Assembly: GCA_965228895.1 (NCBI GenBank)
Contig: OZ245842.1
Coordinates: 2,272,001-2,336,000 of the forward strand
Source: Alphaproteobacteria bacterium
GTDB taxonomy: Bacteria > Pseudomonadota > Alphaproteobacteria > SP197
Length of the DNA: 64,000 nucleotides
Direction: 5' to 3'
Position numbers and translations under genes: made by a program. The notes below the pieces were generated by a model. That model searched no databases, was not told where the DNA came from, and saw only the letters and a list, made by a program, of their open reading frames with translations. Every line of letters starts with the position of its first letter. The stretch's first letter is position 1. This document shows, piece by piece, positions 7,054-28,282 of the stretch.

Positions 7054-7944
7054 CTAGGCCGCGTGCTCCACGATGAACGCGCCGGCGCGCGCCAATGCCG
7101 CGTTGGCTTCCGGCACTTCTGGCGCCAGATGATGCCAGACATGCGGGGCGCCCTCTTCGATCTCCAGAACCGCTGTGCTGCCGGCCGCTGTCATTCCGTC
7201 GGCGAGTGAGCGCGCATCGTCCAGCAGCAGTTCGGTATCGCCGACCTGGATTAGGATCGGCGGTAAGCCTGAAAGATCGCCGTGATGGGGCGCCACATAG
7301 GGATGGCGAAGGTTGTCGCCGTTCAGATACGTCTCAACAAAAACCTCGAGTTCGCCGACGCTCAGGAAGGCGTCACGGTCGGGATCGCCGGCGCGCCACG
7401 TGCCCTCGCCTTCCATGTCGCACCACGGCGATATCGCGACACCACATGCGGGCAAAGGCAGTCCTTCGTCGCGCAAGCGCAGCATGACGGCGAACACCAG
7501 CCCGCCGCCCGCCGAATCGCCGGCAAAGGCGATCCGGCGGCTGTCGCCCATCTCCTGCACCAGGGCACGATAGGCTTCGACACAGTCATCGATGGCGGCG
7601 GGAAACAGATGCTCCGGCGCCAGCCGATACTCCGGAAAGAAGAGCCGGCAACCCGCCGCCTTTGCAAGTCTCGTGACGATCATGATGTGGCTCTTCGTCG
7701 ATCCCATCGCGTAGCCGCCACCATGAAAATAGAGGATGGCGCGATCGGGGTCGGCGTTCGGCGGGTCGAATTGCCATCCCGGCACGCCGCCCAGCGCCGT
7801 CCGGTTTGCGGTCACGCTGTCGTCGCCGGGAAACTCATCGCCCAGCTCGTCGTAGGACACCCGGCGCTCGGCCATGGTGGCGTCTTCAGGTAGCACAGCC
7901 TCGGCCAGAATCTTCTTGTAACGCTCAAGCTCAGGGCTGGGCAT
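7054..7944 (-). CDS. Alpha/beta hydrolase, HSL-family esterase
   Basis: HGGGY, YRLAPEH, GDSAGG nucleophile, ELLLDD, HVWH. Confidence 0.93.
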   Translation of the reverse strand: MPSPELERYKKILAEAVLPEDATMAERRVSYDELGDEFPGDDSVTANRTALGGVPGWQFDPPNADPDRAILYFHGGGYAMGSTKSHIMIVTRLAKAAGCRLFFPEYRLAPEHLFPAAIDDCVEAYRALVQEMGDSRRIAFAGDSAGGGLVFAVMLRLRDEGLPLPACGVAISPWCDMEGEGTWRAGDPDRDAFLSVGELEVFVETYLNGDNLRHPYVAPHHGDLSGLPPILIQVGDTELLLDDARSLADGMTAAGSTAVLEIEEGAPHVWHHLAPEVPEANAALARAGAFIVEHAA

Positions 7945-7946
7945 GG

Positions 7947-8846
7947 CTAGGCTCCCGTGTGTCGTTGAACAAAGATACCAATGCGGTCGATGGCCGCCAT
8001 GGCTTCCGGCAGCAACGGCACCGCGTGATGCCAGACGTGAAAGGCGCCCTCTTCGATCTCCAGCGTCGCGTCGACACCGGCGGCCTCGGCGTGATCGGCA
8101 AGCCTCGTGGCGTCACTGAGCAGGACTTCCAGGGTGCCGACTTGGATCAGGAGCGGCGGCAGGCCAGTAAGGTCGCCGAAGATGGGTGATGCCAGAGGAT
8201 CGCGCTGGTCAGCGCCGTTCATGTAGTCGGTGGCGAAGCTGATAAGTGCGGGCGCGTCACAAATGGGATCCGAAGCCGGATCGGCGTCACGCCAGGCGCC
8301 CCGTCCATCGAGATCGGTCCACGGAGAAATTGGAATGGCACAGGCCGGCTGTGGCAAACCTTCGTCGCGCAAGGCGAGTAGCAGGGCGACGGTCAGCCCG
8401 CCGCCGGCGGAATCGCCGGATACGGCAGTGCTCTTGGCGTCATACCCTTCATCGAGCAGCCAACGGTAGGCCGCGACCGCATCCTCGACGGCCGTCGGAA
8501 AGGGATGTTCGGGAGCAAGACGATAATCGAGGGCAAGCACCTTTGCCTTTGCTGCGCCGGACAGACGCGACGTCAGGCCGATGTGGGTCGATACGGAGCC
8601 AGAGACGTAGCCGCCGCCGTGCAGGTAGAGGAGCACACTGTCATCCCGGGCGGTGCTGGCGGTCTGCCATTGTGCGGGTACGCCGCCGGCCACCGTGTCC
8701 ACCGTTCTGACGCCTTTGGCGATGGGGAACATCCGGCCGAACTCTTCGTATTGGTCCCGGATCTCCGCTAGTGGCCGATCGGGCGGCGCCTTGGCCTGCT
8801 CATCGTAGAGCGCCGCGATGAACCGTTCCATCTGCTTGCTGACCAA
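7947..8846 (-). CDS. Alpha/beta hydrolase, HSL-family esterase
   Basis: HGGGY, YRLAPEHPFP, GDSAGG, EVLLSD, HVWH; TTG start after AGGAGG. Confidence 0.93.
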   Translation of the reverse strand: MVSKQMERFIAALYDEQAKAPPDRPLAEIRDQYEEFGRMFPIAKGVRTVDTVAGGVPAQWQTASTARDDSVLLYLHGGGYVSGSVSTHIGLTSRLSGAAKAKVLALDYRLAPEHPFPTAVEDAVAAYRWLLDEGYDAKSTAVSGDSAGGGLTVALLLALRDEGLPQPACAIPISPWTDLDGRGAWRDADPASDPICDAPALISFATDYMNGADQRDPLASPIFGDLTGLPPLLIQVGTLEVLLSDATRLADHAEAAGVDATLEIEEGAFHVWHHAVPLLPEAMAAIDRIGIFVQRHTGA

Positions 8847-8859
8847 GAATGTCCTCCTG

Positions 8860-9516
8860 CTATGCAGTGGCGCGCACCGCCATCATGGCAATGCCGGTCG
8901 CCGCATGAACGGGGTCGATCACCCTCACCCCAACGGCGCGTTCTAACATCGATCCATACGGCACCATGCCGGCGCAGCCAAGAATCACGACATCGGCGCC
9001 GCGATCCTTCAACCGCTGGGCAGCGGCGCCAAGTTCCTTTGCGGCGCGCCTTGTATCATCAAGTCCGGTTACGGCAATTCCGCACGCCTCAATACCGGCA
9101 AGTCGTGCGTCGAGGCCGAGTCCTCGAATCTGACGCAGGCCGGACCCAATGTCGTCTGCCATGTTGGTCAAAATGCCGTAGTGCTCGCCGAAATTGAGCG
9201 CCGTTGTCACACCGCCCTCACAGATCCCAATGACCGGCTTACGTGTGGTCTCGCGTGCAGAGGCCAGGCCCGGGTCGCCGAAACAGGCGATGACAAAGGC
9301 GTCGGCGCGTCTGTCTTCGCGTGCGATAAGATCGCATAGCGGACCGACAACCTGATCGGCGTGGCGCGCCGTTTCGATACCACGCGGTGCGTCATCCAGG
9401 GTTTCACAGCGAATTTCGGGTCCACCTGTGAATCGCAGGGTTTCCAGGTTGCGGTCCATGGCCGCGGTGACGGCGCGGTCACTGTTGGGGTTGATGACGA
9501 CAATCCGTCCGTGCAT
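8860..9516 (-). CDS. Asp/Glu/hydantoin racemase family protein
   Basis: Start MHGRIVVINPNS (ATG 9516, GGGAGG upstream); two catalytic Cys motifs IACFGDPG and ILGCAGM. Confidence 0.9.
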   Translation of the reverse strand: MHGRIVVINPNSDRAVTAAMDRNLETLRFTGGPEIRCETLDDAPRGIETARHADQVVGPLCDLIAREDRRADAFVIACFGDPGLASARETTRKPVIGICEGGVTTALNFGEHYGILTNMADDIGSGLRQIRGLGLDARLAGIEACGIAVTGLDDTRRAAKELGAAAQRLKDRGADVVILGCAGMVPYGSMLERAVGVRVIDPVHAATGIAMMAVRATA

Positions 9517-9603
9517 GGCGGCCTCCCCGTCCCCGGCCTTCTCGACGCGTGCCGGAGTATGCCACGATGCCCGGGCGGGAACAGCCAGGCCGAGGAGAAT
9601 GAC

Positions 9604-10545
9604 ATGGCGCGGATGATGAAGGTGGCGGCGGCACAAATGGGGCCGGTTGCGCGTGAGGATACGCGCCAGCAGGTCGTTGCCCGTCTTCTTGAGATGATGC
9701 GCGAAGCCGCCGGCTGGGGCGCCGATGTGGTCGTGTTCTCGGAACTGGCGCTGACCACGTTCTTCCCGCGTTGGGTGATCGAGGACGAGGACGAAACCGA
9801 TCGTTGGTATGAACGCGATATGCCGAGCGCGGCGACCCAGCCGCTGTTTGATGAAGCAGCCAAGCTGGGCATTGGCTTTCACCTTGGCTTCGCCGAACTG
9901 GCCTTTGACGACGACGGCACCAAACATCGTTTCAACACGTCGATCCTGGTCGACAAGGCCGGTGCCATCGTTGGCAAATTCCGCAAGGTCCACATTCCCG
10001 GACATGCCGAGGCCAAAGACCGGCCGGGTCAGCATCTGGAGAAACGCTACTTCGAGGTCGGCGACCTCGGCTTTCCGGTCTACCGCGCCTTCGGCGGCAT
10101 CATTGGCATGTGCATATGCAACGACCGGCGCTGGCCCGAGACCTGGAGGGTCATGGGATTGCAAGGCGTCGAAATGGTGTTCTGCGGCTACAACTCCCCG
10201 GTCGGCCTGGGCGACACCTTTGATCTCGACGCGCTCGAGCCGTTCCACAACCACCTGGTCTTCCAGTCAGGCTGTTATCAGAACGCGACCTGGGCGGTCG
10301 GCGTCGCCAAGTGCGGCAACGAAGAAGGTTTCAACATGATCGGCCAGAGTTGCATCGTCGCCCCGTCGGGCGAAATCGTGGCGCAATGCGGGTCGATCGA
10401 GGACGAGGTGATCGTGCACAAATGCGACCTGGATGCGGCCCGCGCCTACAAGGACGACATCTTCAATTTCGCACGGCACCGCCAGCCGCAGCACTATCGC
10501 CTGATCGTCGAACGCACCGGCGCGGAGCCGCCGCCGGAGACTTAG
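9604..10545 (+). CDS. N-carbamoyl-D-amino acid amidohydrolase (D-carbamoylase, nitrilase superfamily)
   Basis: GAGGAG RBS; Glu-Lys-Cys triad in VFSELALTTFFPRW, RKVHIPGH, MCICNDRRWPE; C-terminal FNFARHRQPQHY. Confidence 0.92.
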   Translation: MARMMKVAAAQMGPVAREDTRQQVVARLLEMMREAAGWGADVVVFSELALTTFFPRWVIEDEDETDRWYERDMPSAATQPLFDEAAKLGIGFHLGFAELAFDDDGTKHRFNTSILVDKAGAIVGKFRKVHIPGHAEAKDRPGQHLEKRYFEVGDLGFPVYRAFGGIIGMCICNDRRWPETWRVMGLQGVEMVFCGYNSPVGLGDTFDLDALEPFHNHLVFQSGCYQNATWAVGVAKCGNEEGFNMIGQSCIVAPSGEIVAQCGSIEDEVIVHKCDLDAARAYKDDIFNFARHRQPQHYRLIVERTGAEPPPET

Positions 10546-11978
10546 TCCTCCTCACCCCGCCACAGGTCTGCCGGCGTCTCGGCGCGGCGGATGGTCTTGA
10601 CCGAACCGTTTTCGCAAACCATCACCGCGCCCGGACGCGGGCGCCCGCAATAATGGTTGGCGAGCTCCAGTTGATAAGCGCCGGTATCGAGGATGGCGAC
10701 GAGGTCGCCGCTGGTCGTCGCGGCCGGCAGTTCGCGGTAGCCCGGCATGTGAACGAGCTTGTTTTCGAGCAAGTCGCGGTCTTCCGCCCAACCCGGCCGT
10801 GCGTCGACCAGAGCCTGGACCTTGGCCTCGCCCTCCATGTCGAAATAGACATCAATGGAGTCACAAAGAGGTCCGACGACGCGGAATTGGTCGGTCTCCG
10901 TATCGTCGGTCCGGTTGGCCGTTACCATGTGGAAGTACCAGCCGAAGGCCGATTCCGGGATGATGTTGTAGCCGGCGTCCAGGTAGAGCCACGTTGTGCC
11001 GTCGCGCCGCTTCAGGCCCTCGACCCGCGTCAACAGCAGCGCGCTGTCGCTGGTCATGGCGCGTCCCGGCTCGGTCAGGATTTCGATGCCGGAACCGAGC
11101 TTGTCTTCCAGGACCGGCACGACCTTCGCCGCCACATCGCTTGGCTCGAGGGCGCTGTGGAAGTAGCCGATGTCCGGCGACTGGTCGTTGTACTTGACGT
11201 AGCTGATCGGAAAACCGCCGCCGACGTTGACGTGCCGGAAATCGTCGCCGAAGCGTGCCTTGATAGCCGCCGCCTTCTCAGCCACCACCTCGGCTGCAGC
11301 GACGTAGAGGCCGAGATCGGTCATCTGGGATCCGATATGGACGTGCAGGCCGGCAAGCGCGATCTCGCCTGGTTGCGCCTCGGCGATTTCCAGGCAACGC
11401 GCGATCTCGTCTTCGACCATGCCGAATTTGGAGCGCGTCGAGCCGGTCTCGATACCCGCCGTCGAGCCGCCTTCGACATGGGGCACGGCGCGTAGCGCGA
11501 TGTTCGCACGCACGCCCCGCGCACGTGCGACATCGACGATACGCTCGAGTTCGTGGACTGAATCCACGTTGATCGCTTTGATCGGTGGGTCGAGGGCGTC
11601 CTCGATCTCTTGTTTCGATTTGGCAACGCCGTTGAACACCATGCGGTCGGCGCCCAGGCCGGCGTGTTTGGCCTTGGCGATTTCACCGCCGGAATTGACC
11701 TCTATCGCCACCCCCTCCTCGGCCATCAGCCGGAGCACGGTCAGATTGGCGCAGGCTTTGCTCGCGAAACACACGCTCGCGTTTTCGTGGTGGTCGCGGA
11801 AGGCCGCGGTCAGCCGTCTGGCGTTCCGGCGCAACCGTTGTTCGGAATAGGCAAACACCGGCGAGCCCTGTTCCTCTGCGATCCCCACAAGATCGACGCC
11901 GTCCATATGAAGGTGACCGTCACGATCCTCCAAAAAGCCCGGTTCCGACCACGGGTTCAGGTGGAATGCGTCTTTCAT
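10542..11978 (-). CDS. PLP-dependent fold-type III decarboxylase (LysA family; D-ornithine/D-lysine decarboxylase-like)
   Basis: FASK (PLP Lys), HVHIGSQ, NVGGGF, EPGR, GPLCD, GAY...RPR; GGGAGG before ATG 11978; motifs differ from canonical LysA. Confidence 0.85.
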   Translation of the reverse strand: MKDAFHLNPWSEPGFLEDRDGHLHMDGVDLVGIAEEQGSPVFAYSEQRLRRNARRLTAAFRDHHENASVCFASKACANLTVLRLMAEEGVAIEVNSGGEIAKAKHAGLGADRMVFNGVAKSKQEIEDALDPPIKAINVDSVHELERIVDVARARGVRANIALRAVPHVEGGSTAGIETGSTRSKFGMVEDEIARCLEIAEAQPGEIALAGLHVHIGSQMTDLGLYVAAAEVVAEKAAAIKARFGDDFRHVNVGGGFPISYVKYNDQSPDIGYFHSALEPSDVAAKVVPVLEDKLGSGIEILTEPGRAMTSDSALLLTRVEGLKRRDGTTWLYLDAGYNIIPESAFGWYFHMVTANRTDDTETDQFRVVGPLCDSIDVYFDMEGEAKVQALVDARPGWAEDRDLLENKLVHMPGYRELPAATTSGDLVAILDTGAYQLELANHYCGRPRPGAVMVCENGSVKTIRRAETPADLWRGEED

Positions 11979-12040
11979 CGTCGGCCTCCCTTCGGCGTCT
12001 ACACCGGACATGGTAGGTATGGCATGGCGGGAGGAGCCGG

Positions 12041-13473
12041 ATGGCTGATTTTGATCTGATCGTCAAGGACGGGACCGTGGTGACGGCCAGCGACACCTAT
12101 GCCGGCGATATCGGCGTGCGTGACGGTCGCATCGTCGCGCTGGCCGAAAACCTTCCCTCATCACGGGCCGAGACGGTGGTCGATGCGTCAGGCAAACTCG
12201 TTCTGCCCGGCGGTATCGAGGCACATTGCCATATCGACGAGCCCAGTTTTGGCGGCGCTGTGCTGGCTGACGACTTTGCTTCGGGTTCCGTGGCTGCAGC
12301 CTGTGGTGGGACGACGACCTTCATTCCCTTCGCGACCCAGGTGCCGGGCCAGACGTTGCGTCAGGCTGTCGACGACTATCACGCCAAGGCCGAAGGCCAA
12401 TCGCTGATCGACTATAGCTTCCACATGATCGTCTCGGACCCAACGGATCAGGTCCTGGGTCAAGAACTTCCCGGTCTGCTGCATGACGGCTACACCTCCT
12501 TCAAGGTCTTCATGACCTATGATGACTTTTGCCTGGATGACGGCGAAATCCTGAATGTCCTGGCAACCGCGAAGCGTCACGATGGTTTTGTCATGGTGCA
12601 TGCGGAAAACGATCACTGCATACGTTGGCTCGCCGAGCAGCTTGAGCGGGCCGGTCAGACGGAGCCGGCATCGTTTTCCATCGCCCACGGACCGGTCGCC
12701 GAGCGCGAAGCGACGCACCGCGCCATCAGCTTGGCGGAGATCGTCGATACACCTGTCTTCATCGTTCATGTCTCGTCAGCTCAAGCGATGGAGCAGATCG
12801 CCTGGGCGCAGGCGCGCGGTTTGCCCGTCTACGCGGAGACCTGTCCGCAATACTTTTTCTGTCCGACCAGGACTTCAAGCGGGAGGGCTGGGAAGGTGCG
12901 AAGTATCTATGTGCGCCGCCGCCGCGCGATCCCGGTAATCCCGATCGGCTATGGCGGGGTTTGAAAAACGGCACCTTCCAATTGATTTCGTCGGACCATT
13001 GCCCCTACCGGATGGAAGGACCGGGCGGCCGCATCGAGTCCGCGGGCGAACTCCATTTCCACAAGATCAGTCCGGGCGTTCCGGGCATCGAACTGCGTCT
13101 GCCACTGATGTTTTCCGAAGGCGTGACCAAAGGCCGCATCGATCTCAACCGCTTCGTTGCGCTGACCGCGACCGATGCCGCCAAACTCTATGGGCTCTAT
13201 CCCCAGAAGGGCACCATTGCCGTCGGCAGCGACGCCGATCTGGTGCTTTGGGACCCCGAGCGGCGCACCACCATTCGCCACGAGATGCTCCATGAAGGCG
13301 CGGACTATACGCCCTATGAGGGTTTTGAGCTGACGGGATGGCCGGTTCTGACGCTGTCGCGCGGCGAGACCGTATGGCAGGACGGGCAGGTCCATGGCAA
13401 ACGTGGTCGCGGTCGGTTTCTAAGGCGCGGCAGGTCGGCCGCAATCGGGCGGAGTCAGCCCTGCTCGACCTGA
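12041..13473 (+). pseudogene. hydA: Dihydropyrimidinase / D-hydantoinase split by a single-base frameshift (pseudogene or sequencing error)
   Basis: First ORF has PGGIEAHCH, SFKVF, HAEN, HVS, ETCPQY; homology continues in the -1 frame after TACTTTTTCTG (about 12851-12861) as LSDQDFKREGWEGAKYLCAPPPR, joining the SSDHCP...GVPGIE ORF (12961-13473). Confidence 0.88.
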
Positions 13474-13536
13474 CGTCCCAAACTGCTAGCATGTCGCCGG
13501 GCGCAGACGGGGAACAGTTGGAGTTTTGACGTGAGG

Positions 13537-14268
13537 ATGGCGTTTAAGCGGTTGTTACCGCTAGGTGCGTGTCTGGCGTTGGCGGGAACCGCACAGGCAC
13601 AAGGGCTTGAAGGTATTGGCAACGTTGATCTGGTGGAGGTCTGGGCCTACGGCACGCCGCCGGGCGGCGAGCGCGATTCCATCTTTCGCGGTCATCAAGT
13701 CTATACCGACCAAACCATCGAAACGGTGTCGAGGGCTTATGTGCACATGACCTTTGTCGATGGTACGACGCTGGCGATTGGCGAGAGCACGATCTTGGTT
13801 CTCGATGATTTCGTCTACGATCCCAATGCTCCCGATAGCTTGGTCGCTGATTTCACCGGCGGTCTCTATCACCTGATTTCCGGCGACATCGACAAACAGG
13901 CGGTCCTGATCCGAACACCTGGGCTCGCGATCGGCTTGCGCGGGACGGACATCGTCGTGCAAGTCGGCGAAGACGGCACGACCGATCTGGCGGTCCTGGA
14001 CGGCACGGCCACGGCGACACCGACTGCCGGCGGCGACACGGTCGAGGTCAATGCCGGCCAGACGGCGACGGGCAAACCCGGCGATCCTACGGTTGTTCTG
14101 ACCAACGGCTTGCCGGCCTTCGCCACCACCGACTTACCGACCGGCACAAGAGGCACCCGAAATCTGGGCGGCGCTGCTGGCGATGGGCGTACCGGCGTTG
14201 GTGGCGATGGAGACAGCAGCAGTGGCGGCGACTCGAGCAGCGGGTCCAGCAGTGGAGGCATAAACTGA
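13537..14268 (+). CDS. Secreted FecR-domain protein with Gly/Ser-rich tail
   Basis: Signal peptide ending AQA; FVDGTTLAIGESTILVLDDFVYDP and IRTPGLAIGLRGT; GGDSSSGSSSGG tail. Confidence 0.8.
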   Translation: MAFKRLLPLGACLALAGTAQAQGLEGIGNVDLVEVWAYGTPPGGERDSIFRGHQVYTDQTIETVSRAYVHMTFVDGTTLAIGESTILVLDDFVYDPNAPDSLVADFTGGLYHLISGDIDKQAVLIRTPGLAIGLRGTDIVVQVGEDGTTDLAVLDGTATATPTAGGDTVEVNAGQTATGKPGDPTVVLTNGLPAFATTDLPTGTRGTRNLGGAAGDGRTGVGGDGDSSSGGDSSSGSSSGGIN

Positions 14269-14299
14269 GACGTTTGCTCTTGATGCGCGGACGTTACCC

Positions 14300-15094
14300 A
14301 TGGCGATGACCATCACCCGGTGGGTCGACATGGCGACGATCGACTTCGCGACGCTTGACCCCGCGCGCACGATAGCCTTGTTGCCCGTCGGCGCTGTTGA
14401 GCAGCACGGCCCTCACCTGCCGCTTGGAACCGACACCATGATCGCCGACGGTATCGTGGCGCGGACGCTTGATGTCGTTGACGGCGACATCACCGTCCTG
14501 GTCCTGCCGACACAATCCATTGGCGATAGCCTGGAGCACGCCGACTTCCCGGGTACGCTGAGCCATATGGCGGAGACCTTGATCGCATCGTGGCTGGAAC
14601 TAGGTCGCTCGGTCCATGCTGCGGGTTTGCGCAAGATGATGATCTTCAACGCGCATGGCGGCCAACCTCAGATCGTTGATATCGTCGCCAAGCGCCTGCG
14701 TGTCGAACTGGACATGCTGGTCGGGCGTGCGACGTATTTCTCGTTCGGTTGCCCAGACGGTCTGATCGACCCGGACGAGTTCGCCTTCGGGATTCATGGC
14801 GGTGATCTCGAAACGTCCATGATGCTTCATCTGCACCCGGACTTGGTGCGGCGAGACAACATGGCTGACTTCGAGAACCGCATGCGCACCATCGCCCCCA
14901 CGATGCACCGCATGGGGCGCGGCGGACGCACCGGTATTGGCTGGAAGGCGAGCGATCTCAATCAGGCGGGTGCCGTCGGCAATGCCGACGCCGCGACGGC
15001 GGAGAAAGGCCGGGCCTTGGTCGAGCACTTTGCTGATGAATTGGCGCTTCGGCTTGCCGATCTCGCAGCTTTCGATTTGGCAGACCTGCGGTGA
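14300..15094 (+). CDS. Creatininase/creatinine amidohydrolase family protein
   Basis: LPVGAVEQHGPHLPLGTD, EHADFPGT, NAHGG, HGG..ETS, ATAEKG. Confidence 0.92.
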   Translation: MAMTITRWVDMATIDFATLDPARTIALLPVGAVEQHGPHLPLGTDTMIADGIVARTLDVVDGDITVLVLPTQSIGDSLEHADFPGTLSHMAETLIASWLELGRSVHAAGLRKMMIFNAHGGQPQIVDIVAKRLRVELDMLVGRATYFSFGCPDGLIDPDEFAFGIHGGDLETSMMLHLHPDLVRRDNMADFENRMRTIAPTMHRMGRGGRTGIGWKASDLNQAGAVGNADAATAEKGRALVEHFADELALRLADLAAFDLADLR

Positions 15095-15101
15095 CTGGCA
15101 G

Positions 15102-16403
15102 ATGTCATACGGCCAGCGTGGTGAGCTGGGTGTGAAGATCGCGATCATCGGCGGCGGTATTGGCGGGCTGACGGCGGCGTTGGCCCTGCACAAGGCTGGT
15201 TTTCGCCCGACCGTTTATGAGTCGGTGGGCGATATCCGCGCGTTGGGCGTCGGTATCAACCTGCTGCCCCATGCCGTTCGGGTGTTGAGCGATCTTGGTC
15301 TTCAGCGCGACCTCGCGGCGACCGGCATCGCGACGCGAGAACTGCTCTATTTCAACAAGTTCGGCCAGAAGATCTGGCAGGAGGATCGCGGCCTTGATGC
15401 CGGTTATCCGTGGCCGCAATACTCGATCCTGCGCGGTGCCGTGCAGTACCTGTTGCTGGAGGCCGTGACGATCCGTCTTGGCGCCGACTGCTTGAAGACG
15501 GCTCACCATTTGGTGGGCCTCGACAACACCGGCGACACCGTCAAACTCAGTTTTACGGACGGGCGCGGCGGGTCGTTGGTTACCGGGGAGACCGCCGATC
15601 TCGTGATCGGCGCCGACGGTATTCACTCCGAGGTACGGCGGCACTTCTATCCCGGCGAGGGACCACCGATTTGGAACGGCGCGATTCTGTGGCGTGGCGT
15701 GACGGAGAGCGCGCCGTTTCTGACCGGCCGCTCTCTGTTCATGGCCGGTCACGTGAATCAGAAGTTCGTCTGCTATCCTGTCTCGCGGGATCATTACGAT
15801 CGCGGGCGGTCGCTGACAAACTGGGTCGCGGAGCTGCGTGTCGATCCTGGCGCGGGTTACAGGCGCGAAGACTGGAACCGGGAAGCCGATTGGGACGATT
15901 TCCTGCCGGCGTTTGAAGGCTGGCGCTTTGATTGGCTGGATATCCCGCATTTGATTTCAAGCGCCCAGACCGTCTACGAATATCCGATGGTCGACCGCGA
16001 CCCCGTTGAACGCTGGACGTTTGGGCGGGTGACGCTGCTGGGGGACGCGGCGCATCCCATGTATCCTATCGGCTCCAATGGTGCGTCCCAGGCCATTCTC
16101 GATGCGGAGACTCTGGCCCATGCGTTGCGGGACAAGCCTGACCCGGCGGAGGCGCTGGCGCACTACGAAGAGACACGCCTGGAGGCGACCGCTGAGATCG
16201 TTCGAAGCAATCGCCAGAACGGACCCGATCAGGTCATGCAGATTGTTGAAGAGCGCGCGCCCAACGGATTCGACAATCTGGTTGACGTGATCAGCCAGCG
16301 CGAGCTGCAGGAGATCGCCGATCGTTACAAGCAGGTCGCAGGTTTTGACAAGGCGCGCATGATCGAGGCCGCGCTAAAACCGGACACGTCCGCCGAAGCG
16401 TGA
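15102..16403 (+). CDS. FAD-dependent monooxygenase (class A flavoprotein)
   Basis: GGGIGG Rossmann, GADGIHS, LLGDAAHPMYPIGSNGASQAILDA; start ATG 15102 or GTG 15132. Confidence 0.92.
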   Translation: MSYGQRGELGVKIAIIGGGIGGLTAALALHKAGFRPTVYESVGDIRALGVGINLLPHAVRVLSDLGLQRDLAATGIATRELLYFNKFGQKIWQEDRGLDAGYPWPQYSILRGAVQYLLLEAVTIRLGADCLKTAHHLVGLDNTGDTVKLSFTDGRGGSLVTGETADLVIGADGIHSEVRRHFYPGEGPPIWNGAILWRGVTESAPFLTGRSLFMAGHVNQKFVCYPVSRDHYDRGRSLTNWVAELRVDPGAGYRREDWNREADWDDFLPAFEGWRFDWLDIPHLISSAQTVYEYPMVDRDPVERWTFGRVTLLGDAAHPMYPIGSNGASQAILDAETLAHALRDKPDPAEALAHYEETRLEATAEIVRSNRQNGPDQVMQIVEERAPNGFDNLVDVISQRELQEIADRYKQVAGFDKARMIEAALKPDTSAEA

Positions 16404-16427
16404 GGACAGGTCGATGACCAACGGAGC

Positions 16428-17339
16428 TTGCGCGTGAATCGGGGCCTAGCGGAGTCATCCGTTGCGCATGTGATCGCTGCCGACGACGGTGCGGAGCTGA
16501 TCGCACGCCGTCTGGGCAATCCGGATGGACCGCGCGTTCTTGTCAGCCATGGCGTTGGTTTTGCCGTCGATGGTTTTGCGCCCATGTGGTGCCACCTGGA
16601 ATCGGACTGTGACCTGATTCTGGTGGATCTGCGCGGTCACGGTCGCAATCCCCCAGTGGCGCCGGAGAGCGTCAGGGGACCGCAGATCATCAGTGACATG
16701 AAGGCGGCTCTTCGTGGCATCCAGAACGAATGGGGTGAAAAATCCCTATGGGGCTTGCTTCATTCCTATTCAGGCCTGACGGCGCTGCGCCTTGAATCGA
16801 CCGAGCCCGGTTGGTTCGCCGGTCTCATCTTGATGGAGCCACCGGCCATGCCGCCGCCGGACCATCCAGCGTTTCCCGGTTTCGACAAAGGACGTCTGGC
16901 CCTCGCCGAACGTAGTCTGAAACGTCAGGCCGTGTTCACGTCAATCGACGACTTGGTGGCGAAGTACACCAGCCGCGACCAGTTCTCACGCTTTGCGCCC
17001 GGGGCAGCGCGGGCTTTGGCCGAATCGCTTCTGGTGCCTGATGACGACGGCTGGCGTCTTGCCTGTTCGCCTGAGGTCGAGGCGCGCTTCTACGCAACCA
17101 ACGAAGACGACGGTCTGTGGCAGCGTCTGCATCACGTCACATGTCCGGTCATGGTGCTGGCTGGTGGTGACGACATGCGCGATGGCGTACCGCCTGCCCT
17201 CACCGCCCGCGATCTGGCTCGGATCGGTGGCTTCGACCTCGTCGAAGTCGCCGGCACGACGCACATGATGGTGCTTGAGCGGCCGCGCTTCGTGGCCAAG
17301 CTGGCACGCACGTTCATCTCGGCCGATCAACCTGGTTGA
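16428..17339 (+). CDS. Alpha/beta hydrolase
   Basis: SHGVGF, DLRGHG, LHSYSG nucleophile elbow, THMMVLE; start uncertain. Confidence 0.85.
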   Translation: MRVNRGLAESSVAHVIAADDGAELIARRLGNPDGPRVLVSHGVGFAVDGFAPMWCHLESDCDLILVDLRGHGRNPPVAPESVRGPQIISDMKAALRGIQNEWGEKSLWGLLHSYSGLTALRLESTEPGWFAGLILMEPPAMPPPDHPAFPGFDKGRLALAERSLKRQAVFTSIDDLVAKYTSRDQFSRFAPGAARALAESLLVPDDDGWRLACSPEVEARFYATNEDDGLWQRLHHVTCPVMVLAGGDDMRDGVPPALTARDLARIGGFDLVEVAGTTHMMVLERPRFVAKLARTFISADQPG

Positions 17340-17920
17340 ACGAGAATCTTGTCGAGATAGGCGTTGAGGTGCGCGACCTGACGCTCGGCAGGCCACTCCT
17401 TGGCATCGAGCACCGCGCGCAGGCCGATGCCATTGACCAGGGCGACGATCGTCTCGGCCTCGAACGCGATATCGACATCCGGTGCCAGGAGACCGGCGTC
17501 CGCCACCAGGTTCAACCGCTCAACAAGCGTGTTGAACCAGCGCACATGCATGTCGCGCTGGCGGCGGTTCAAAGCGGCGCTTGAGAATGTCCTCGTCCAG
17601 AAACTGTACCAAACTTTGATACCCTCTCGACTCTCCCGGTGGAGCGGCAAGGTTTCGGCAAGGAACCCTCTGAGGTCGACGGGATCTTCCTCGACCGCGC
17701 GCGCCATACGCCGGTTGAGCCGTTGAATGACAAGGTCGAGAGCCGCCAGCATCACCGCATCCTTGTCGGCGAAGTAATGGGTGATGGCGCCGGTCGTGCA
17801 AGCGGCCTGGGCGCCGATATCACCCAGGGTCACGGCGTCGATGCCTTGGCGCGCGATCACTTTACAGGCCGCCGCCGCGATAACTTCTCGTCGCTCGTCG
17901 TGATCAACAACTCGGGGCAT
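17327..17920 (-). CDS. TetR-family transcriptional regulator (BetI-like C-terminal domain)
   Basis: MPRVVDHDERR, N-terminal HTH, TGAITHYFADKD; divergent from the acyl-CoA operon. Confidence 0.92.
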   Translation of the reverse strand: MPRVVDHDERREVIAAAACKVIARQGIDAVTLGDIGAQAACTTGAITHYFADKDAVMLAALDLVIQRLNRRMARAVEEDPVDLRGFLAETLPLHRESREGIKVWYSFWTRTFSSAALNRRQRDMHVRWFNTLVERLNLVADAGLLAPDVDIAFEAETIVALVNGIGLRAVLDAKEWPAERQVAHLNAYLDKILVQPG

Positions 17921-19270: not shown

Positions 19271-20443
19271 ATGGACGATCGCTTTACCGATACCGACCGT
19301 GACATCCGCCGTCGCGCGGCTGAGTTCACGGACACGTACCTTATTCCCCTGGAGGAGCCGACCGAGGAACGCGGCGGTCACTGGAGTTGGGCGGAGACCC
19401 AGCACGTGCGCGATGCGGCTGTCGAATACGGCCTCTCCGCCATCAACATCAAGAAGGAGTACGGCGGTCAGGAGTTCACGGTCCTGCAACAAATCCTGGT
19501 GCACGAGGAGATCGGCCGGGCGACTAACGGTCTCTTCGCCCTGCTCCCCTTCCCCCATGTGCCCCTGCAGCACGGCACCAAAGAACAAATCGACGGTTAT
19601 CTACGGCCGATGTGCGCGGGCAAGATTCGCTCGGCGTTTCTGGTGACCGAAGAAGGCGCGGGCTCCGATCCGCGTCAGGTCAAGACGAAAGCGATGCGCA
19701 AGGGCAACGGGTTCGTGGTGACCGGCGAGAAGTGGTTCGCGACATCAGCCGACGTTTCCCAGGTGCAGATCGTCCACGCCCATGTCGACGATGACCCCGG
19801 TCAGCCGACCCTGTTCTTGATCCCGACCGCCCGCGATGGCGTCACCATCAAGGAACTGCCCACCTTCACCCACAACTATGTCTTTGGCCATCCGGTGATG
19901 GCCTTCGACGAGGTCGAGGTCGGCGCCGATGAAATCCTCGGTGAAGTCGGCCAAGGTTACGAGCTGACCAAGGATTGGTTTGTCGAGGCACGGCTTGAGA
20001 TCTGCGCCCACTGCATCGGCCAATCCCGGCGCGCGGCCCTGGTCGCCAACGCCTGGGCCGGTGAGCGTGAGCAGTTCGGTCAGAAGATCCAGGACTTCCA
20101 GGCGATCCGTTTCATGATCGCCGACATGGCCGTCGCCATTTATGCCATGCAGAGCATGGTCTATCGCCTGGCCGGTGACATTGACCGCGGAATCGACCGC
20201 AAGACCGCACATGCCCAGGCGAGCGCCGCCAAGCTGTTTTGTTCCGAACAAGCCGGCAAGGTCGTCGACGGCGCCGTCCAGATCCTGGGCGGACGCGGCT
20301 ACATGCGCAAGAATCCGGTCGAACGCCTTTATCGCGATGTGCGTGTCGAGCGCATTTGGGAGGGCACCTCCGAGGTGCAGCGCGATGTTATCGGCCGCAT
20401 GGTCGCCAAGCGCGGCCTGGGCCGTTACAGCCTGTGGGACTGA
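19271..20443 (+). CDS. Acyl-CoA dehydrogenase (paralog of upstream gene)
   Basis: TEEGAGSD, GEKWF, REQFG, QILGGRGY, RIWEGTSEVQR; start ATG 19271. Confidence 0.95.
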   Translation: MDDRFTDTDRDIRRRAAEFTDTYLIPLEEPTEERGGHWSWAETQHVRDAAVEYGLSAINIKKEYGGQEFTVLQQILVHEEIGRATNGLFALLPFPHVPLQHGTKEQIDGYLRPMCAGKIRSAFLVTEEGAGSDPRQVKTKAMRKGNGFVVTGEKWFATSADVSQVQIVHAHVDDDPGQPTLFLIPTARDGVTIKELPTFTHNYVFGHPVMAFDEVEVGADEILGEVGQGYELTKDWFVEARLEICAHCIGQSRRAALVANAWAGEREQFGQKIQDFQAIRFMIADMAVAIYAMQSMVYRLAGDIDRGIDRKTAHAQASAAKLFCSEQAGKVVDGAVQILGGRGYMRKNPVERLYRDVRVERIWEGTSEVQRDVIGRMVAKRGLGRYSLWD

Positions 20444-20445
20444 CC

Positions 20446-21696
20446 ATGAAACATCCGGAGTCGCTCAAGGAGATCGTCGAAAACGGCCTTTGCGTCGGCT
20501 GTGGTCTCTGCCAGTCGATCGCCGGGACCGACCGCGTCGAGATGACCATGGTCGACCCGCCGGGCCGGTTGCGGCCGCGTATCAAGGCGCCTCTCGACGA
20601 CGAGACGGAAAAGACCATCCTGGCGGCCTGCCCGGGTGCGTTGATCGACGAGCCCGTCGAAACCGATCGCCATGGCGCCGACGTAAAGGTCGACGCTTCC
20701 TTCGGTCCGTGGCGCCGCGTTTGGAAGGGCCATGCGAGCGAGCCCGAAATTCATCACATGGCATCGTCAGGAGGCTCGCTGACCGCGCTCGGTATCTTCC
20801 TTTTGGAGACCGGCAAGGTCGACTTCGTGCTGCACGTCGCCGCGTCAAAAGAAAAGCCCATGCGGACTGAACGACACTTGTCGTTCGATCGTGCTCAGGT
20901 TCTTGAAGGCGCGGGATCGCGTTATGGCCCTTCGTCGCCCTTGATCGATTTCACCGATCAGCTCGACAAGGGCAAACCCTTCGCGGTGATCGGCAAACCC
21001 TGCGACATCTCCGGCGTCCACAACATGCGCAAGGTCGATCCGCGCGTCGACGAGCTCGTCAAGTACACGATGGCGTTTTCCTGCGGCACGTTTGCCGATC
21101 TGCAGTGTTCACGCTGGATGCTGGATCGCCAGGGCGTCCCTGGCGGTGAGGAGAACCTCTCGCTGTTCCGTTACCGTGGTTATGGCTGTCCCGGGCCGAC
21201 GCGCGCGGTGACGAAGGACGGCCAGGTCTTCGACGAACCCTATCTGGATTTCTGGTATGGCCCGCACGGCTGGACCCACCAGTTCCGCTGCAAGATCTGC
21301 CCCGACCCGACCGGTGAAATGACGGATATCTCAATCTCCGATGCCTGGCCGGGCGGCGGACCGACCGAAGAAGAATGGGGTGGTTACAGCCTCTTCATCA
21401 GCCGCACGCTGAGGGGCGATGCGCTGATGCAAGAGGCGATCGATGCAGGCGCGATAACCGTCGAACCAAGCGACATGACGGCGCTCCATGATTGCCAGCC
21501 ACACCAGGCGGTCAAGAAAGACGGTATGAACGCGCGTCTTCAAGCCATCGAGGACGAAGGCGGCGTTGGCCCAGTCTATCGCCATGTCCGATTGGACGAA
21601 GCGGCGGCCCAACGGGACGGCGTGTTCTATGAGGAGAACCGGGCGGGCACGCGCGAGCGGATTCGAAAAGGTGTCAACCGTGAATCACTCCCCTGA
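20446..21696 (+). CDS. Coenzyme F420 hydrogenase/dehydrogenase beta subunit (FrhB/FdhB) family Fe-S flavoprotein
   Basis: Start MKHPESL; CVGCGLC...CPG ferredoxin-like N-terminus, ASSGG, GSRY, GKPCD, FSCG, YRGYGCPG, RCKICPD, ISISDAW. Confidence 0.88.
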   Translation: MKHPESLKEIVENGLCVGCGLCQSIAGTDRVEMTMVDPPGRLRPRIKAPLDDETEKTILAACPGALIDEPVETDRHGADVKVDASFGPWRRVWKGHASEPEIHHMASSGGSLTALGIFLLETGKVDFVLHVAASKEKPMRTERHLSFDRAQVLEGAGSRYGPSSPLIDFTDQLDKGKPFAVIGKPCDISGVHNMRKVDPRVDELVKYTMAFSCGTFADLQCSRWMLDRQGVPGGEENLSLFRYRGYGCPGPTRAVTKDGQVFDEPYLDFWYGPHGWTHQFRCKICPDPTGEMTDISISDAWPGGGPTEEEWGGYSLFISRTLRGDALMQEAIDAGAITVEPSDMTALHDCQPHQAVKKDGMNARLQAIEDEGGVGPVYRHVRLDEAAAQRDGVFYEENRAGTRERIRKGVNRESLP

Positions 21697-27238: not shown

Positions 27239-28282
27239 CTAGAATTTCAGGACGATGACCACGAGAACCGCGAACATGAGCGGAAACCCGACCCGACAAA
27301 TCTGGTCAATCCGGCCGGCCAGCGCCACACGTTCCTTCGCGACCAGGTAGGTTGTCGTCAGTGACTGGATCAGAGCCAGAAACACGACGATCGTACAGAC
27401 GTTGATCAACCGATCCAGAATGGTGAAATAGCCGAGCTTCGGCACGACGTTCGACGTGGCGAAGATGAAGGCGATCAATGTCAGCATGGCCGTTGCCGAC
27501 AAGCCGATTTGCGTGCCGAAGTGCGCGGGATTGATCCAGAAGACAGACCATGACATCGCGACGATCAGCGCCAAAGGAAGCAGTACTTTCCAGACGTAGT
27601 AGTCCGAGATGCGCTGGGTCGAGATCGTCAGGTCGTAGCGCGCGTGGTAGCGGTCATAGGCGTCAACAAACTGGCTGTTGACGCTCCCTGTGGCGCTGTT
27701 GACCGTCCAGTCGGAAATGTTCAGGCGATCGGCCACGCCGGACAACCGTTCATCGACCAACAACATGACCTCATCCTCTGAAGCCTCAATGGGCAGCAGC
27801 GAAACGACAATCTCTTGCCGGTCGAACGGGAACTCCCGCAGGCTGTGGTAGCTCGCCATGGTGCCGAAGTACCGTTGAACGTACCTCACCTGCCCATCGG
27901 GCCCGACACTCACTTCCATCGGTCGGCTGGTGAACAGACGTCCCGAATTGCTGAACACCAGGCCCGGGGTCCACACGTCGTCAAGCGGGATCTCACATCC
28001 TTCAAGATCCGCGAGCCGCGGATCGATCCATGACACCACGACAACATAGTCGCCGGTTAGAGTCTGCGCGACATCGTTGATTTCGTGGAGGTCGGCCAGG
28101 CGAATGCCGACCGTGACCGACTCGGGCGCCCCGCCGTCGTTGGGGCGGACATGGGTGGCGAGGTGCGGTGTGGCGCAGGTTTCGTCAACTGTCGCCGCAT
28201 CCGATTGACCGTAGGACGGTTCCATCGAAAGAACGGCGCACAGTGCCACGACGAGAAGCGCAAGCGCCATTTCGACCCTCAT
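27239..28282 (-). CDS. Pentameric ligand-gated ion channel (prokaryotic pLGIC, GLIC/ELIC family)
   Basis: Signal peptide; WIDPRL, VWTPGLVFSN, Pro-loop LREFPFDRQ, pre-M1 R...YYVWKVLLPL, four TM helices with PKLGYFTILD M2-M3 loop. Confidence 0.92.
   Translation of the reverse strand: MRVEMALALLVVALCAVLSMEPSYGQSDAATVDETCATPHLATHVRPNDGGAPESVTVGIRLADLHEINDVAQTLTGDYVVVVSWIDPRLADLEGCEIPLDDVWTPGLVFSNSGRLFTSRPMEVSVGPDGQVRYVQRYFGTMASYHSLREFPFDRQEIVVSLLPIEASEDEVMLLVDERLSGVADRLNISDWTVNSATGSVNSQFVDAYDRYHARYDLTISTQRISDYYVWKVLLPLALIVAMSWSVFWINPAHFGTQIGLSATAMLTLIAFIFATSNVVPKLGYFTILDRLINVCTIVVFLALIQSLTTTYLVAKERVALAGRIDQICRVGFPLMFAVLVVIVLKF

Follow-up and report, generated by a model that had tools for sequence, protein, structure and literature searches.

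Hydantoin-utilisation (hyu) clusters, like the industrial 'hydantoinase process', combine a hydantoin racemase, a D-hydantoinase and a D-carbamoylase, for instance in Agrobacterium and Sinorhizobium. All three of these enzyme families are represented in the 64,000-nucleotide stretch of alphaproteobacterial DNA analysed here (contig OZ245842.1; hereafter, the window), where a fourth enzyme, a predicted D-type decarboxylase, is embedded among them. The cluster would therefore yield an amine as its final product rather than a D-amino acid. The closest characterised enzyme to this decarboxylase is DokD (STM2360, Salmonella enterica; PDB 6n2h and later entries), which acts on D-Orn and D-Lys according to the available text of PMC13397332 and PMC13294871. 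The dokD gene has genes for an ornithine racemase and for APC permeases as neighbours, as also described in the available text of PMC13397332, rather than hydantoin genes. LysA, the diaminopimelate (DAP) decarboxylase, belongs to the same superfamily and also acts at a D-stereocentre. In the available text of PMC8277567, Arg249 and Arg285 of the Thermotoga DAP decarboxylase bind the distal carboxylate of the substrate and Glu315 its distal amino group, and ODC and ADC carry an Asp at the Glu315 position.

A hydantoin-type cluster with an embedded decarboxylase

The four genes that the first-pass annotation had placed at 8860-13473 are indeed found there: hydantoin racemase (-), N-carbamoyl-D-amino-acid hydrolase (DCase) (+), LysA-family decarboxylase (-) and D-hydantoinase (+). 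Since they alternate in strand, they are not one operon in this genome. No transporter is present in the four-gene cluster of the window. The features of the region are:

7054..8846 (-): two tandem hormone-sensitive-lipase-type esterases, GESAG subfamily (PF07859, 190 and 193 bits)
8860..9489 (-): hydantoin racemase, 209 aa (PF01177, 153 bits, residues 1-198; Asp/Glu/hydantoin racemase family)
9604..10545 (+): DCase (D-carbamoylase), 313 aa (PF00795, 159 bits)
10542..11978 (-): fold-type III PLP decarboxylase of a DokD-related clade, 478 aa (PF02784 and PF00278); predicted D-amino-acid decarboxylase
12041..12862 (+): D-hydantoinase/dihydropyrimidinase, N-terminal part up to the frameshift (NF009941 410.5 bits, TIGR02033 296.3 bits, profile 2-272)
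12848..12858 (+): 1-base deletion splitting the hydantoinase, near 12852 (from contig comparison)
12853..13473 (+): D-hydantoinase, C-terminal part, in the next frame (NF009941 239.4 bits, TIGR02033 202.3 bits, profile 303-466)

The racemase has hydantoin and allantoin racemases as nearest solved relatives (74.3 bits to 2eq5) and contains both Cys motifs, ACFGDPG and LGCAGM; its ORF is open upstream as far as 10254, the PF01177 domain beginning at Met 9489. The DCase aligns end to end with 11 solved DCase sequences of Agrobacterium type (376-385 bits), the next-best solved family, N-carbamoylputrescine amidase, reaching only 77.6 bits. The stretches of these solved DCases that hold what we take to be the catalytic Glu, Lys and Cys are matched in this alignment. 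The decarboxylase ORF is open to 12011 but its start is likely at 11978, because homologues are 478-480 aa long; it overlaps the DCase gene tail to tail by 4 nt. The tandem esterases score 235.9 and 281 bits against NF058651, both below its cut-off of 430. Close relatives show conserved synteny between these esterases and the cluster, the esterases adjoining the racemase at L004, L008, L009 and L098.

The cluster also differs from known hyu clusters in that its hydantoinase is broken in this strain. This gene occupies two frames, with ORFs at 12041-12964 (the end of which is out of frame) and 12961-13473, a split that had been overlooked in the first-pass annotation. The frame of the second ORF is free of stops from about 12850 onwards, and the NCBIfam matches leave a gap between profile positions 272 and about 303-307. 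The N-terminal part has the HxH metal motif, and the C-terminal frame translates as LFLSDQDFKREGWEGAKY...SDHCPY, of which SDHCPY presumably holds the catalytic Asp. In a near-identical strain, represented by the contig of run X8 and differing by 3 substitutions over 1501 nt, an extra C behind 12852 restores the frame and the gene is intact, whereas the contigs of runs X7 and X9 carry the same deletion as the window. In the same-genus genome G087, the hydantoinase is likewise in one frame. To judge from its reading frames, the hydantoinase is thus inactivated in this strain by a 1-base deletion. Therefore, hydantoins probably cannot feed the route here unless a different amidohydrolase encoded in the genome takes over this step; other cyclic amidohydrolases are present, one matching TIGR02033 with 555 bits and another adjoining a second DCase paralogue.

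Residues and relationships of the decarboxylase

All the motifs quoted for the decarboxylase in the first-pass annotation are present in its translation (FASKAC, EVNS, VFNGVAK, DAGYNIIPES..GWYF, GPLCD and GAYQLE..HY..RPR). Each of them differs from its counterpart in the genome's own canonical LysA (YAVKAN, DIVS, VFSGVGK, DAAMNDMIRPALY, GPVCE and AGAYG). K74 and C372 (478-aa numbering) are kept, in columns common to all LysA, DokD and ODC-like rows that we take to be those of the PLP Lys and of the active-site Cys; R306, the Arg of EPGR, is also kept. H212 is common to DokD and the clade, whereas LysA rows carry D or A. The departure from DAP decarboxylase that had been noted extends to the residues that recognise DAP's distal end: E342 stands in place of the distal-carboxylate-binding Arg (Arg285 equivalent) and D373 in place of the Glu of the CE motif (Glu315 equivalent), Arg and Glu being found at these positions in 6/6 canonical LysA rows. 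These two acidic residues suggest a substrate with a side chain ending in a cationic or H-bond-donating group, such as that of D-Orn, D-Lys or D-diaminobutyrate; decarboxylation would then yield a diamine. At the Arg position, a Glu is found in 15/15 full-length hydantoin-linked rows and an Asp in DokD and in all rows linked to a transporter (30/30), an M81 peptidase (14/14) or a PF00144 hydrolase (2/2); the remaining 15 rows comprise 4 Glu and 11 Asp. This pattern tracks the tree and may reflect ancestry rather than function.

The likeness to DokD, to which the first-pass annotation had pointed, holds for the gene from the Salmonella record: DokD has the same motif variants (FASK(A/T)C, E(V/A)NS, NGV, DAGY, GPLCD and RPR), an acidic residue at the distal-Arg position, an Asp for the CE Glu and the Tyr430 equivalent. 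DokD is also the best PDB sequence match (227.6 bits; the highest-scoring DAP decarboxylase reaches 198.7). In a Foldseek search with the AlphaFold model (pLDDT 92.2), all rows listed above the first DAP decarboxylase (rank 16) are DokD chains (TMq 0.82-0.85); LysA folds are comparable (TMq 0.72-0.81). However, DokD is only about 30-32% identical to the window enzyme (32.1% by tblastn, 29-30% by Foldseek), has Asp rather than Glu at the distal-Arg position and has an insertion of about 10 aa before DAGY that is missing here. Conversely, it lacks the insertion after GPLCD to which attention had been drawn; this insertion is real, of about 33-38 residues relative to DokD and LysA, forms a helical hairpin in the model (residues ~381-408) and is conserved across the clade of ~480-aa proteins. 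Assignment as a DokD equivalog is ruled out, the score of 289.7 bits being far below the cut-off of 700.

A phylogeny against LysA, DokD and ODC had been proposed as a check. Maximum-likelihood trees set DokD and the clade apart from LysA (SH-aLRT 99 with 84 rows; 98/94 with 33 rows), both with long-branch warnings. The grouping of DokD with LysA instead is not rejected by the AU test (p = 0.187).

Genomic neighbourhoods of related decarboxylases

Linkage of the decarboxylase to hydantoin genes extends beyond this genome; had it been confined to this one, that would have counted against the first reading of the locus. DCase and/or hydantoinase genes lie within 8 kb of the decarboxylase at 16 of 79 related loci. 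Both are present at 8 of these 16; in 5 of the other 8 (L005, L006, L007, L009 and L010), the contig ends at or just past the decarboxylase gene. The linked loci comprise a 6-row clade that includes the window (support 99) and a further group, within which a 9-row clade has support 100; gene order differs between the two subclades. At L018, L024, L067, L074 and L080, DCase, decarboxylase and hydantoinase form tight operons, following one another in this order on a single strand with the matched stretches about 5-50 nt apart, and at L048 and L052 the decarboxylase directly follows the DCase. The linkage is kept from 91% to 40% decarboxylase identity, across the change in gene order. The linked loci are kin, and the tree forces only two label changes, hence few independent events.

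Other loci have other neighbours: a Lys/Arg/Orn-type binding-protein ABC transporter at 30, an MlrC-like M81 peptidase with a peptide ABC transporter at 14, and a PF00144 hydrolase (best match D-aminopeptidase) at L017 and L078. These fit a role in the metabolism of D-amino acids or basic amino acids. In G087 and at L009, a PF00144 gene is located between the DCase and the decarboxylase, directly downstream of the latter; it is missing in the window. Furthermore, within the window's family, six genomes of genus g4 carry a DCase at 64-71% identity, without any match to the decarboxylase, and both of those inspected have a hydantoinase-DCase operon. The module thus exists both with and without the decarboxylase, which is an optional addition to it.

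A candidate route from hydantoins to amines

We infer from the gene neighbourhood a four-step route, in which the racemase would interconvert D- and L-5-substituted hydantoins, the D-hydantoinase would open the ring to give an N-carbamoyl-D-amino acid, the D-carbamoylase would release the D-amino acid with NH3 and CO2, and the PLP-dependent decarboxylase (10542-11978, minus strand), acting on the D-stereocentre of the free D-amino acid, would convert it into an amine. The D-specificity, the coupling to the carbamoylase and the substrate class are inferred as well. We consider this route, probably with a basic side chain, somewhat more probable than its alternatives taken together. Against it count the alternating strands, the hydantoinase frameshift and the lack of a cluster transporter in this genome; moreover, no natural hydantoin bearing a basic side chain is known to us.

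The decarboxylase might instead be a second DAP decarboxylase, a LysA paralogue making lysine from meso-DAP, e.g. scavenged from cell walls. It exceeds the cut-off of TIGR01048, the NCBI lysA equivalog (332.5 against 297.9 bits), keeps the PLP Lys column, the active-site Cys column and the EPGR Arg, and its listed homologues, where named, are called 'diaminopimelate decarboxylase' except P0053 (D-ornithine/D-lysine decarboxylase) and P0023 (hypothetical protein). We nevertheless regard this as very improbable. According to the available text of PMC13397332 and PMC13294871, DokD, which carries the same changes, uses D-Orn and D-Lys, and the second of the two Arg residues assigned to the distal carboxylate in that of PMC8277567, like the Glu assigned there to the distal amino group, is replaced here but unchanged in the true LysA rows. 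In addition, the separate canonical lysA that had been proposed as a check is present, after an argH-like ORF (G000:C1:4735564-4736784; 448.1 bits, against 331.7 for the window gene), and the neighbours of the window gene are catabolic. DokD itself, in a 2017 paper, reportedly had no DAP activity. Because of the two replaced residues and the lysA elsewhere, the window gene probably does not encode a DAP decarboxylase; the LysA label would come from automatic annotation, and a D-amino-acid decarboxylase is more likely.

The enzyme could also serve, outside any linear hydantoin pathway, as a general sink that removes a single free D-amino acid or a few of them, in the manner of DokD with D-Orn and D-Lys, a possibility to which we give a minor but appreciable weight. 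An equally tentative part of it is that these D-amino acids come from any source, such as uptake, D-peptide hydrolysis or racemases, the position among hydantoin genes then being a loose 'D-amino-acid island'. This would agree with the absence of hydantoin genes at 63/79 loci, where transporters or peptidases adjoin instead, with the strand arrangement in the window, with the g4 operons that do without the decarboxylase, and with the PF00144 serine hydrolase of same-genus relatives, which is secreted-looking and on the same strand as the decarboxylase. It fits less well with the five loci where the decarboxylase is tightly enclosed on one strand, with its place behind the DCase at L048 and L052, with the persistence of the linkage despite altered gene order, and with the subclade-specific Glu present in all 15 linked rows. 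Lastly, the cluster may be decaying in this strain, leaving the decarboxylase without a current role, which we judge improbable. The deletion is shared by the window and contigs of two runs of one study and is absent from the near-identical strain and G087, and the 4-nt overlap is found where G087 and L009 have the PF00144 gene. However, the decarboxylase, DCase and racemase frames are intact, the decarboxylase is 90-91% identical to same-genus orthologues without stops, in 8/8 columns, among them those of the PLP Lys and the active-site Cys, its residue is that of all 76 clade rows or is shared with close relatives, and the other cyclic amidohydrolases could substitute. Such decay would in any case concern the strain and not the function of the system.

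Full-text literature searches returned no description of a hydantoin cluster with an embedded D-type decarboxylase. Hence, the favoured reading, in which the decarboxylase extends the hydantoinase module, suggests that the conversion of hydantoins into amines is an undescribed natural route.

A hydantoin gene cluster and its interrupted hydantoinase

Four neighboring genes, called from the ORF listing and family scans of 8860-13473, alternate in strand and were viewed by the first-pass annotation as a possible hydantoin-to-amine pathway. Every motif that it quoted was found in the translation.

Genes of the cluster (positions in the window, strand, product)
8860-9489, minus strand, Asp/Glu/hydantoin racemase (PF01177, 153 bits)
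9604-10545, plus strand, carbon-nitrogen hydrolase, i.e. N-carbamoyl-D-amino-acid hydrolase (DCase; 376-385 bits end to end against solved DCases)
10542-12011, minus strand, fold-type III PLP decarboxylase (PF02784 and PF00278)
12041-13473, plus strand, D-hydantoinase/dihydropyrimidinase (NF009941 and TIGR02033)

The racemase and DCase genes are divergent with 114 nt between them, the DCase and decarboxylase genes converge with a 4-nt overlap, and the decarboxylase and hydantoinase genes are divergent with 62 nt between them. Since its homologues have 478-480 aa, the decarboxylase probably starts at the Met at 11978. By sequence, the DCase matches solved N-carbamoyl-D-amino-acid hydrolases at orthologue grade: it is intact, reaches 385 bits over its full length, and aligns with them at the stretches that we take to hold its catalytic Glu, Lys and Cys. 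The nearest solved relatives of the racemase are hydantoin and allantoin racemases; the match is at family level, and the curated models do not tell hydantoin racemases apart from other PF01177 members. Long spurious ORFs (8860-10254, minus strand; 10311-11495, plus strand) overlap these genes on the other strand or upstream; they are usual at 63% G+C and inflate naive ORF lists.

The first-pass annotation had overlooked that the hydantoinase gene is broken. A 1-base deletion near 12852 splits it over two frames, the N-terminal part covering profile positions 2-272 and the C-terminal part 303-466; the second frame reads as good hydantoinase sequence already from about 12850. Beyond the break lies the motif SDHCPY, which presumably holds the catalytic Asp. 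The frameshift call is based on assembled public contigs compared over 12000-13500. The contig of run X8, which comes from a different study under a different organism label and represents a near-identical strain, shows 3 substitutions in 1501 nt and has a C put in behind 12852 that restores the frame. The contig of run X7 contains every one of the sampled words, and the assembly of the window may derive from it; runs X7 and X9 belong to one study and the contigs of both carry the deletion (site 12848-12858). Furthermore, the hydantoinase is in one frame in the same-genus genome G087, whose decarboxylase is 90% identical, and is a single ORF of about 470-480 aa in six related loci (L004, L010, L018, L067, L074, L080). 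Since the near-identical X8 strain and G087 have the gene in frame and the X7 and X9 contigs share the deletion, the break is strain-specific and probably real. A programmed frameshift is unlikely: there is no slippery heptamer of the form X XXY YYZ at the site and the frame of close relatives is plainly intact. Elsewhere, the genome encodes a full dihydropyrimidinase (C1:3025523-3026881, 555 bits to TIGR02033), as well as a second DCase paralogue that shows 60% identity and adjoins another cyclic amidohydrolase (217 bits to TIGR02033; G000:C1:4478775-4481670).

Several other genes surround the cluster. Two tandem hormone-sensitive-lipase-type esterases (7054-8846, minus strand; nearest to the GESAG subfamily, under its cut-off) also adjoin the racemase in L004, L008, L009 and L098 and may therefore be part of the same unit. 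After the hydantoinase, 13531-17920 encodes a FecR-domain protein, a creatininase-family protein, a FAD monooxygenase, an alpha/beta hydrolase and a TetR regulator; synteny with L004, L005, L007, L008 and G087 covers most of this block. A glycerol-3-phosphate dehydrogenase gene, absent from the window, lies between the hydantoinase and this block in L004-L010. This DAO-family gene was considered as a pathway member and rejected, given its 626.7 bits against the glycerol-3-phosphate dehydrogenase cut-off of 360. In same-genus relatives, G087 among them, the gene directly downstream of the decarboxylase encodes a serine hydrolase of the beta-lactamase family (PF00144) that apparently carries a signal peptide (L098, 7699-9030, minus strand; L009, 1202-2515, plus strand); this gene is missing from the window, where the DCase and decarboxylase overlap tail to tail at the corresponding position (10542-10545). 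Further away, the product of 27239-28282 (minus strand) is a bacterial relative of the pentameric ligand-gated ion channels, with 55.3 bits to Neur_chan_LBD and 38.2 bits to Neur_chan_memb.

The decarboxylase compared with LysA and DokD

The decarboxylase scores 332.5 bits (331.7 in the genome search) against TIGR01048, the equivalog model of diaminopimelate (DAP) decarboxylase (LysA), which is above the cut-off of 297.9, and pipelines will therefore name it LysA. Where sources name the listed homologues, "diaminopimelate decarboxylase" is almost always used. The genome also holds a separate canonical lysA (G000:C1:4735564-4736784, 448.1 bits) after an argH-like ORF. According to PMC8277567, Arg249 and Arg285 of the Thermotoga DAP decarboxylase bind the distal carboxylate of DAP and Glu315 binds its distal amino group, a position occupied by Asp in ODC and ADC. 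Residue roles in DokD were assigned by alignment together with that paper; residues of the decarboxylase are given in its 478-aa numbering. The first distal-carboxylate Arg (R306) is kept everywhere in the alignment. The second (Thermotoga Arg285, in the "IRP" motif) is Arg in 6/6 canonical LysA rows and Glu (E342) in the decarboxylase, while the Glu of GPxCE (Thermotoga Glu315), present in 6/6 LysA rows, is Asp (D373) in the decarboxylase and in all 76 rows of its clade of approximately 480-aa relatives. These substitutions thus deprive the pocket of one carboxylate-binding Arg and give it two acidic groups. The altered pocket fits a side chain with a cationic or hydrogen-bond-donating end. 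It is therefore unlikely, from these residues, that the enzyme is a DAP decarboxylase, and the name "diaminopimelate decarboxylase" is probably wrong for the clade. Hydantoin-5-propionate and dihydroorotate are natural ureides, which is why acidic substrates were considered; D-Glu and D-Asp are less likely since the pocket gains two acidic residues.

By fold, the best match of the decarboxylase (AlphaFold model, pLDDT 92.2) is DokD, the D-ornithine/D-lysine decarboxylase of Salmonella: in Foldseek, all rows above the first DAP decarboxylase (rank 16) are DokD chains, with TMq 0.82-0.85. E342 (Asp in DokD), C372, D373 and Y443 align with DokD active-site residues; the DokD counterpart of Y443, Tyr430, was identified by comparing wild-type and Y430F chains. 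A quick ML tree of 84 rows sets DokD and the clade apart from six LysA rows (SH-aLRT 99). A careful tree of 33 of these 84 rows, picked to span the subclades, gives the same split a support of 98/94, with DokD weakly nested in the clade. Fragmentary decarboxylases below 400 aa (L009, L010, L012, L025) were left out of the trees. However, the AU test did not reject a grouping of DokD with LysA (p = 0.187) and both trees gave long-branch warnings. The insertion that the first-pass annotation had pointed out after GPLCD is real: the clade has about 33-38 aa there that are absent from DokD and LysA, confidently predicted by the AlphaFold model to form a helical hairpin (helices 381-393 and 395-408). 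Because of the AU test, the long branches, an identity to DokD of about 30-32%, this insertion and a score of 289.7 bits against the DokD equivalog NF052544, far under its cut-off of 700, the enzyme is filed as DokD-like and not as DokD.

The DokD sequence was taken from a Salmonella record in a plasmid collection (L089), where its neighbors are an APC permease, an ornithine racemase and an amino-acid permease, a setting that PMC13397332 also describes. This layout differs from that of the window and the 79 related loci, which show other neighbors. The plasmid collection yielded no member of the 480-aa clade, all matches being below 60% identity and the best listed at about 30-33%. A search for DokD in the 81 genomes of the family of genome G001, which is evidently not enterobacterial, gave no match over the cut-off.

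Neighborhoods of the clade

In one species-level genome collection, 514 relatives of the decarboxylase were confirmed, and the best 80 of them, representing 79 distinct loci, were surveyed by searching for neighbors within 8 kb by tblastn with window proteins and representatives of other neighbors. The hydantoin linkage recurs beyond the window: a DCase and/or a hydantoinase lies within 8 kb in 16/79 loci. Other loci have, within the same distance, a family-3 binding-protein ABC transporter (30/79), an MlrC-like M81 peptidase (14/79), a PF00144 hydrolase with at least 40% identity (2/79) or none of these neighbors (17/79). Both DCase and hydantoinase are present in 8 of the 16 linked loci; in five of the other eight, the contig ends at or just past the decarboxylase.

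The linked loci fall into two groups. L004-L010, whose decarboxylases are 62-91% identical, are laid out as in the window, with a divergent hydantoinase; the DCase and the racemase lie a few kb away on the opposite side. In the second group (L018, L024, L040, L043, L048, L052, L067, L074 and L080; decarboxylases 40-49% identical), L018, L024, L067, L074 and L080 carry DCase, decarboxylase and hydantoinase, in that order, on one strand with about 5-50 nt between matched stretches (the source genome of L024 is flagged as unpublished; L080 has the same layout). In L048 and L052, DCase, decarboxylase and an FrhB-like gene follow one another in this order, with a racemase beside them. On the tree, the rows with the linkage fall partly into a 6-row clade that contains the window (support 99) and partly within a second group that includes a 9-row clade (100); the hydantoin-link label needs four changes, two of them forced by well-supported branches. 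Since the two groups differ in gene order and only two changes are forced, the linkage survives deep divergence and gene-order change, yet reflects few independent events.

In seven of the nine second-group loci (L018, 10816 onward; L048, 9404-10681; L052, L067, L074, L080 and L024), the DCase-decarboxylase(-hydantoinase) operon is followed by a gene for a protein of about 425 aa that belongs to the FrhB/FdhB family (F420 hydrogenase beta-subunit family). The window has a copy with only 40% identity at 20239-21696, where its neighbors are two acyl-CoA dehydrogenases, an ADP-forming acyl-CoA synthetase and an SDR. Given this identity and these acyl-CoA neighbors, it was not counted as a member of the cluster.

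Several observations argue against a fixed coupling. Hydantoin genes are absent within 8 kb in 63/79 loci from the best 80 of the 514 relatives. Among 41 genomes searched within the family of the window, the decarboxylase is found in seven, including that of the window (genus g1, 2/2; g2, 3/3; g3, 1/3; g4, 0/15), and the DCase in 28. For instance, six g4 genomes have a DCase that is 64-71% identical and no decarboxylase match, with a hydantoinase-DCase operon in the two that were examined; the one scanned for families (L100) has a Dpp-type transporter and a class-V aminotransferase next to this operon. Since the DCase and hydantoinase-DCase operons occur in genomes of this family without the decarboxylase, the latter is an optional module.

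The remaining subclades have other partners. Pseudomonas, Neptunomonas and Amphritea are the sources of the 30 transporter-linked loci. In L019, the only one of them scanned, the decarboxylase comes after a LysR regulator and a polar-amino-acid ABC transporter, and the binding protein is nearest to a lysine/arginine/ornithine model, whose cut-off of 256.35 it narrowly misses with 249.1 bits. Dongia, Inquilinus and relatives are those of the 14 M81-linked loci, 11 of which have a peptide binding protein upstream; among the scanned examples, L071 adds an RpiR-type regulator to such a protein, and in L056 the MlrC-like M81 peptidase directly precedes the decarboxylase. PF00144 hydrolases are found in L017 and L078, the copy of L078 being best matched by D-aminopeptidase (122.5 bits, under the cut-off). 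In the hydantoin-linked L018, a PotA/PotC-type transporter follows the operon (TIGR01187, 363.7 bits; cut-off 355.6). These neighbors are either enzymes potentially able to liberate D-amino acids or transporters of basic amino acids and amines; as a set they fit a D-amino-acid decarboxylase and lean to basic substrates. Moreover, one MAG carries two paralogues of the clade on separate contigs, one hydantoin-linked (L080) and the other M81-peptidase-linked (L053), which argues for different roles.

The residue at the old Arg position differs between the subclades. It is Glu in 15/15 hydantoin-linked full-length rows, and Asp in 30/30 transporter-linked, 14/14 M81-linked and 2/2 PF00144-linked rows as well as in DokD. 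The 15 remaining rows comprise 11 Asp and 4 Glu, all four Glu in the group holding the second linked clade. The equivalent of DokD Tyr430 is Tyr in the clade of the window and Asn in 9/9 rows of the second linked group. As both patterns follow the tree, they are hints of differing specificity, not proof.

Proposed route and its significance

In the proposed pathway, the racemase would equilibrate the enantiomers of a hydantoin, the D-hydantoinase would open the ring, the DCase would release the D-amino acid and the decarboxylase would take off the alpha-carboxyl at the D-centre to give an amine. PMC12091041 states that DokD decarboxylates D-ornithine with inversion of configuration. The first three putative steps have strong family assignments behind them, while the fourth and its coupling to the third are proposed from the active-site comparison and the gene neighborhood. 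If the route exists, a basic D-amino acid is the favored substrate, at about even odds. Taken jointly, the data allow a reading that we put forward tentatively and consider rather doubtful. In it, racemic 5-substituted hydantoins whose side chain bears an amino group would be converted in full to diamines such as putrescine or cadaverine by a natural cascade of racemase, D-hydantoinase, D-carbamoylase and D-specific decarboxylase. The clade would be a new D-amino-acid decarboxylase family marked by the helical-hairpin insertion, and the old Arg position would act as a Glu-or-Asp "ruler" that fixes different substrate lengths in the hydantoin-, peptide- and transporter-linked subclades.

DokD, LysA and the enzymes of the hydantoinase process are each already known. 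In the full-text literature within reach, which covers few subscription journals and no supplements, we found no description of a hydantoin cluster holding a LysA-like decarboxylase, nor of the 480-aa clade. The LysA name on such a large clade (514 relatives) can mislead lysine-pathway reconstructions. To our knowledge, D-specific amino-acid decarboxylases are rare, and a family whose specificity residues differ between subclades would help the one-pot production of amines from racemic hydantoins. As far as we know, it is still uncertain what D-hydantoinase and D-carbamoylase pairs act on in nature and what role they play, despite their industrial use. By including a D-type decarboxylase as well, a conserved operon suggests an amine as end product and makes the question of their role testable with a small substrate panel. 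If true, the cascade would give the enzymes of the "hydantoinase process" a physiological end point.
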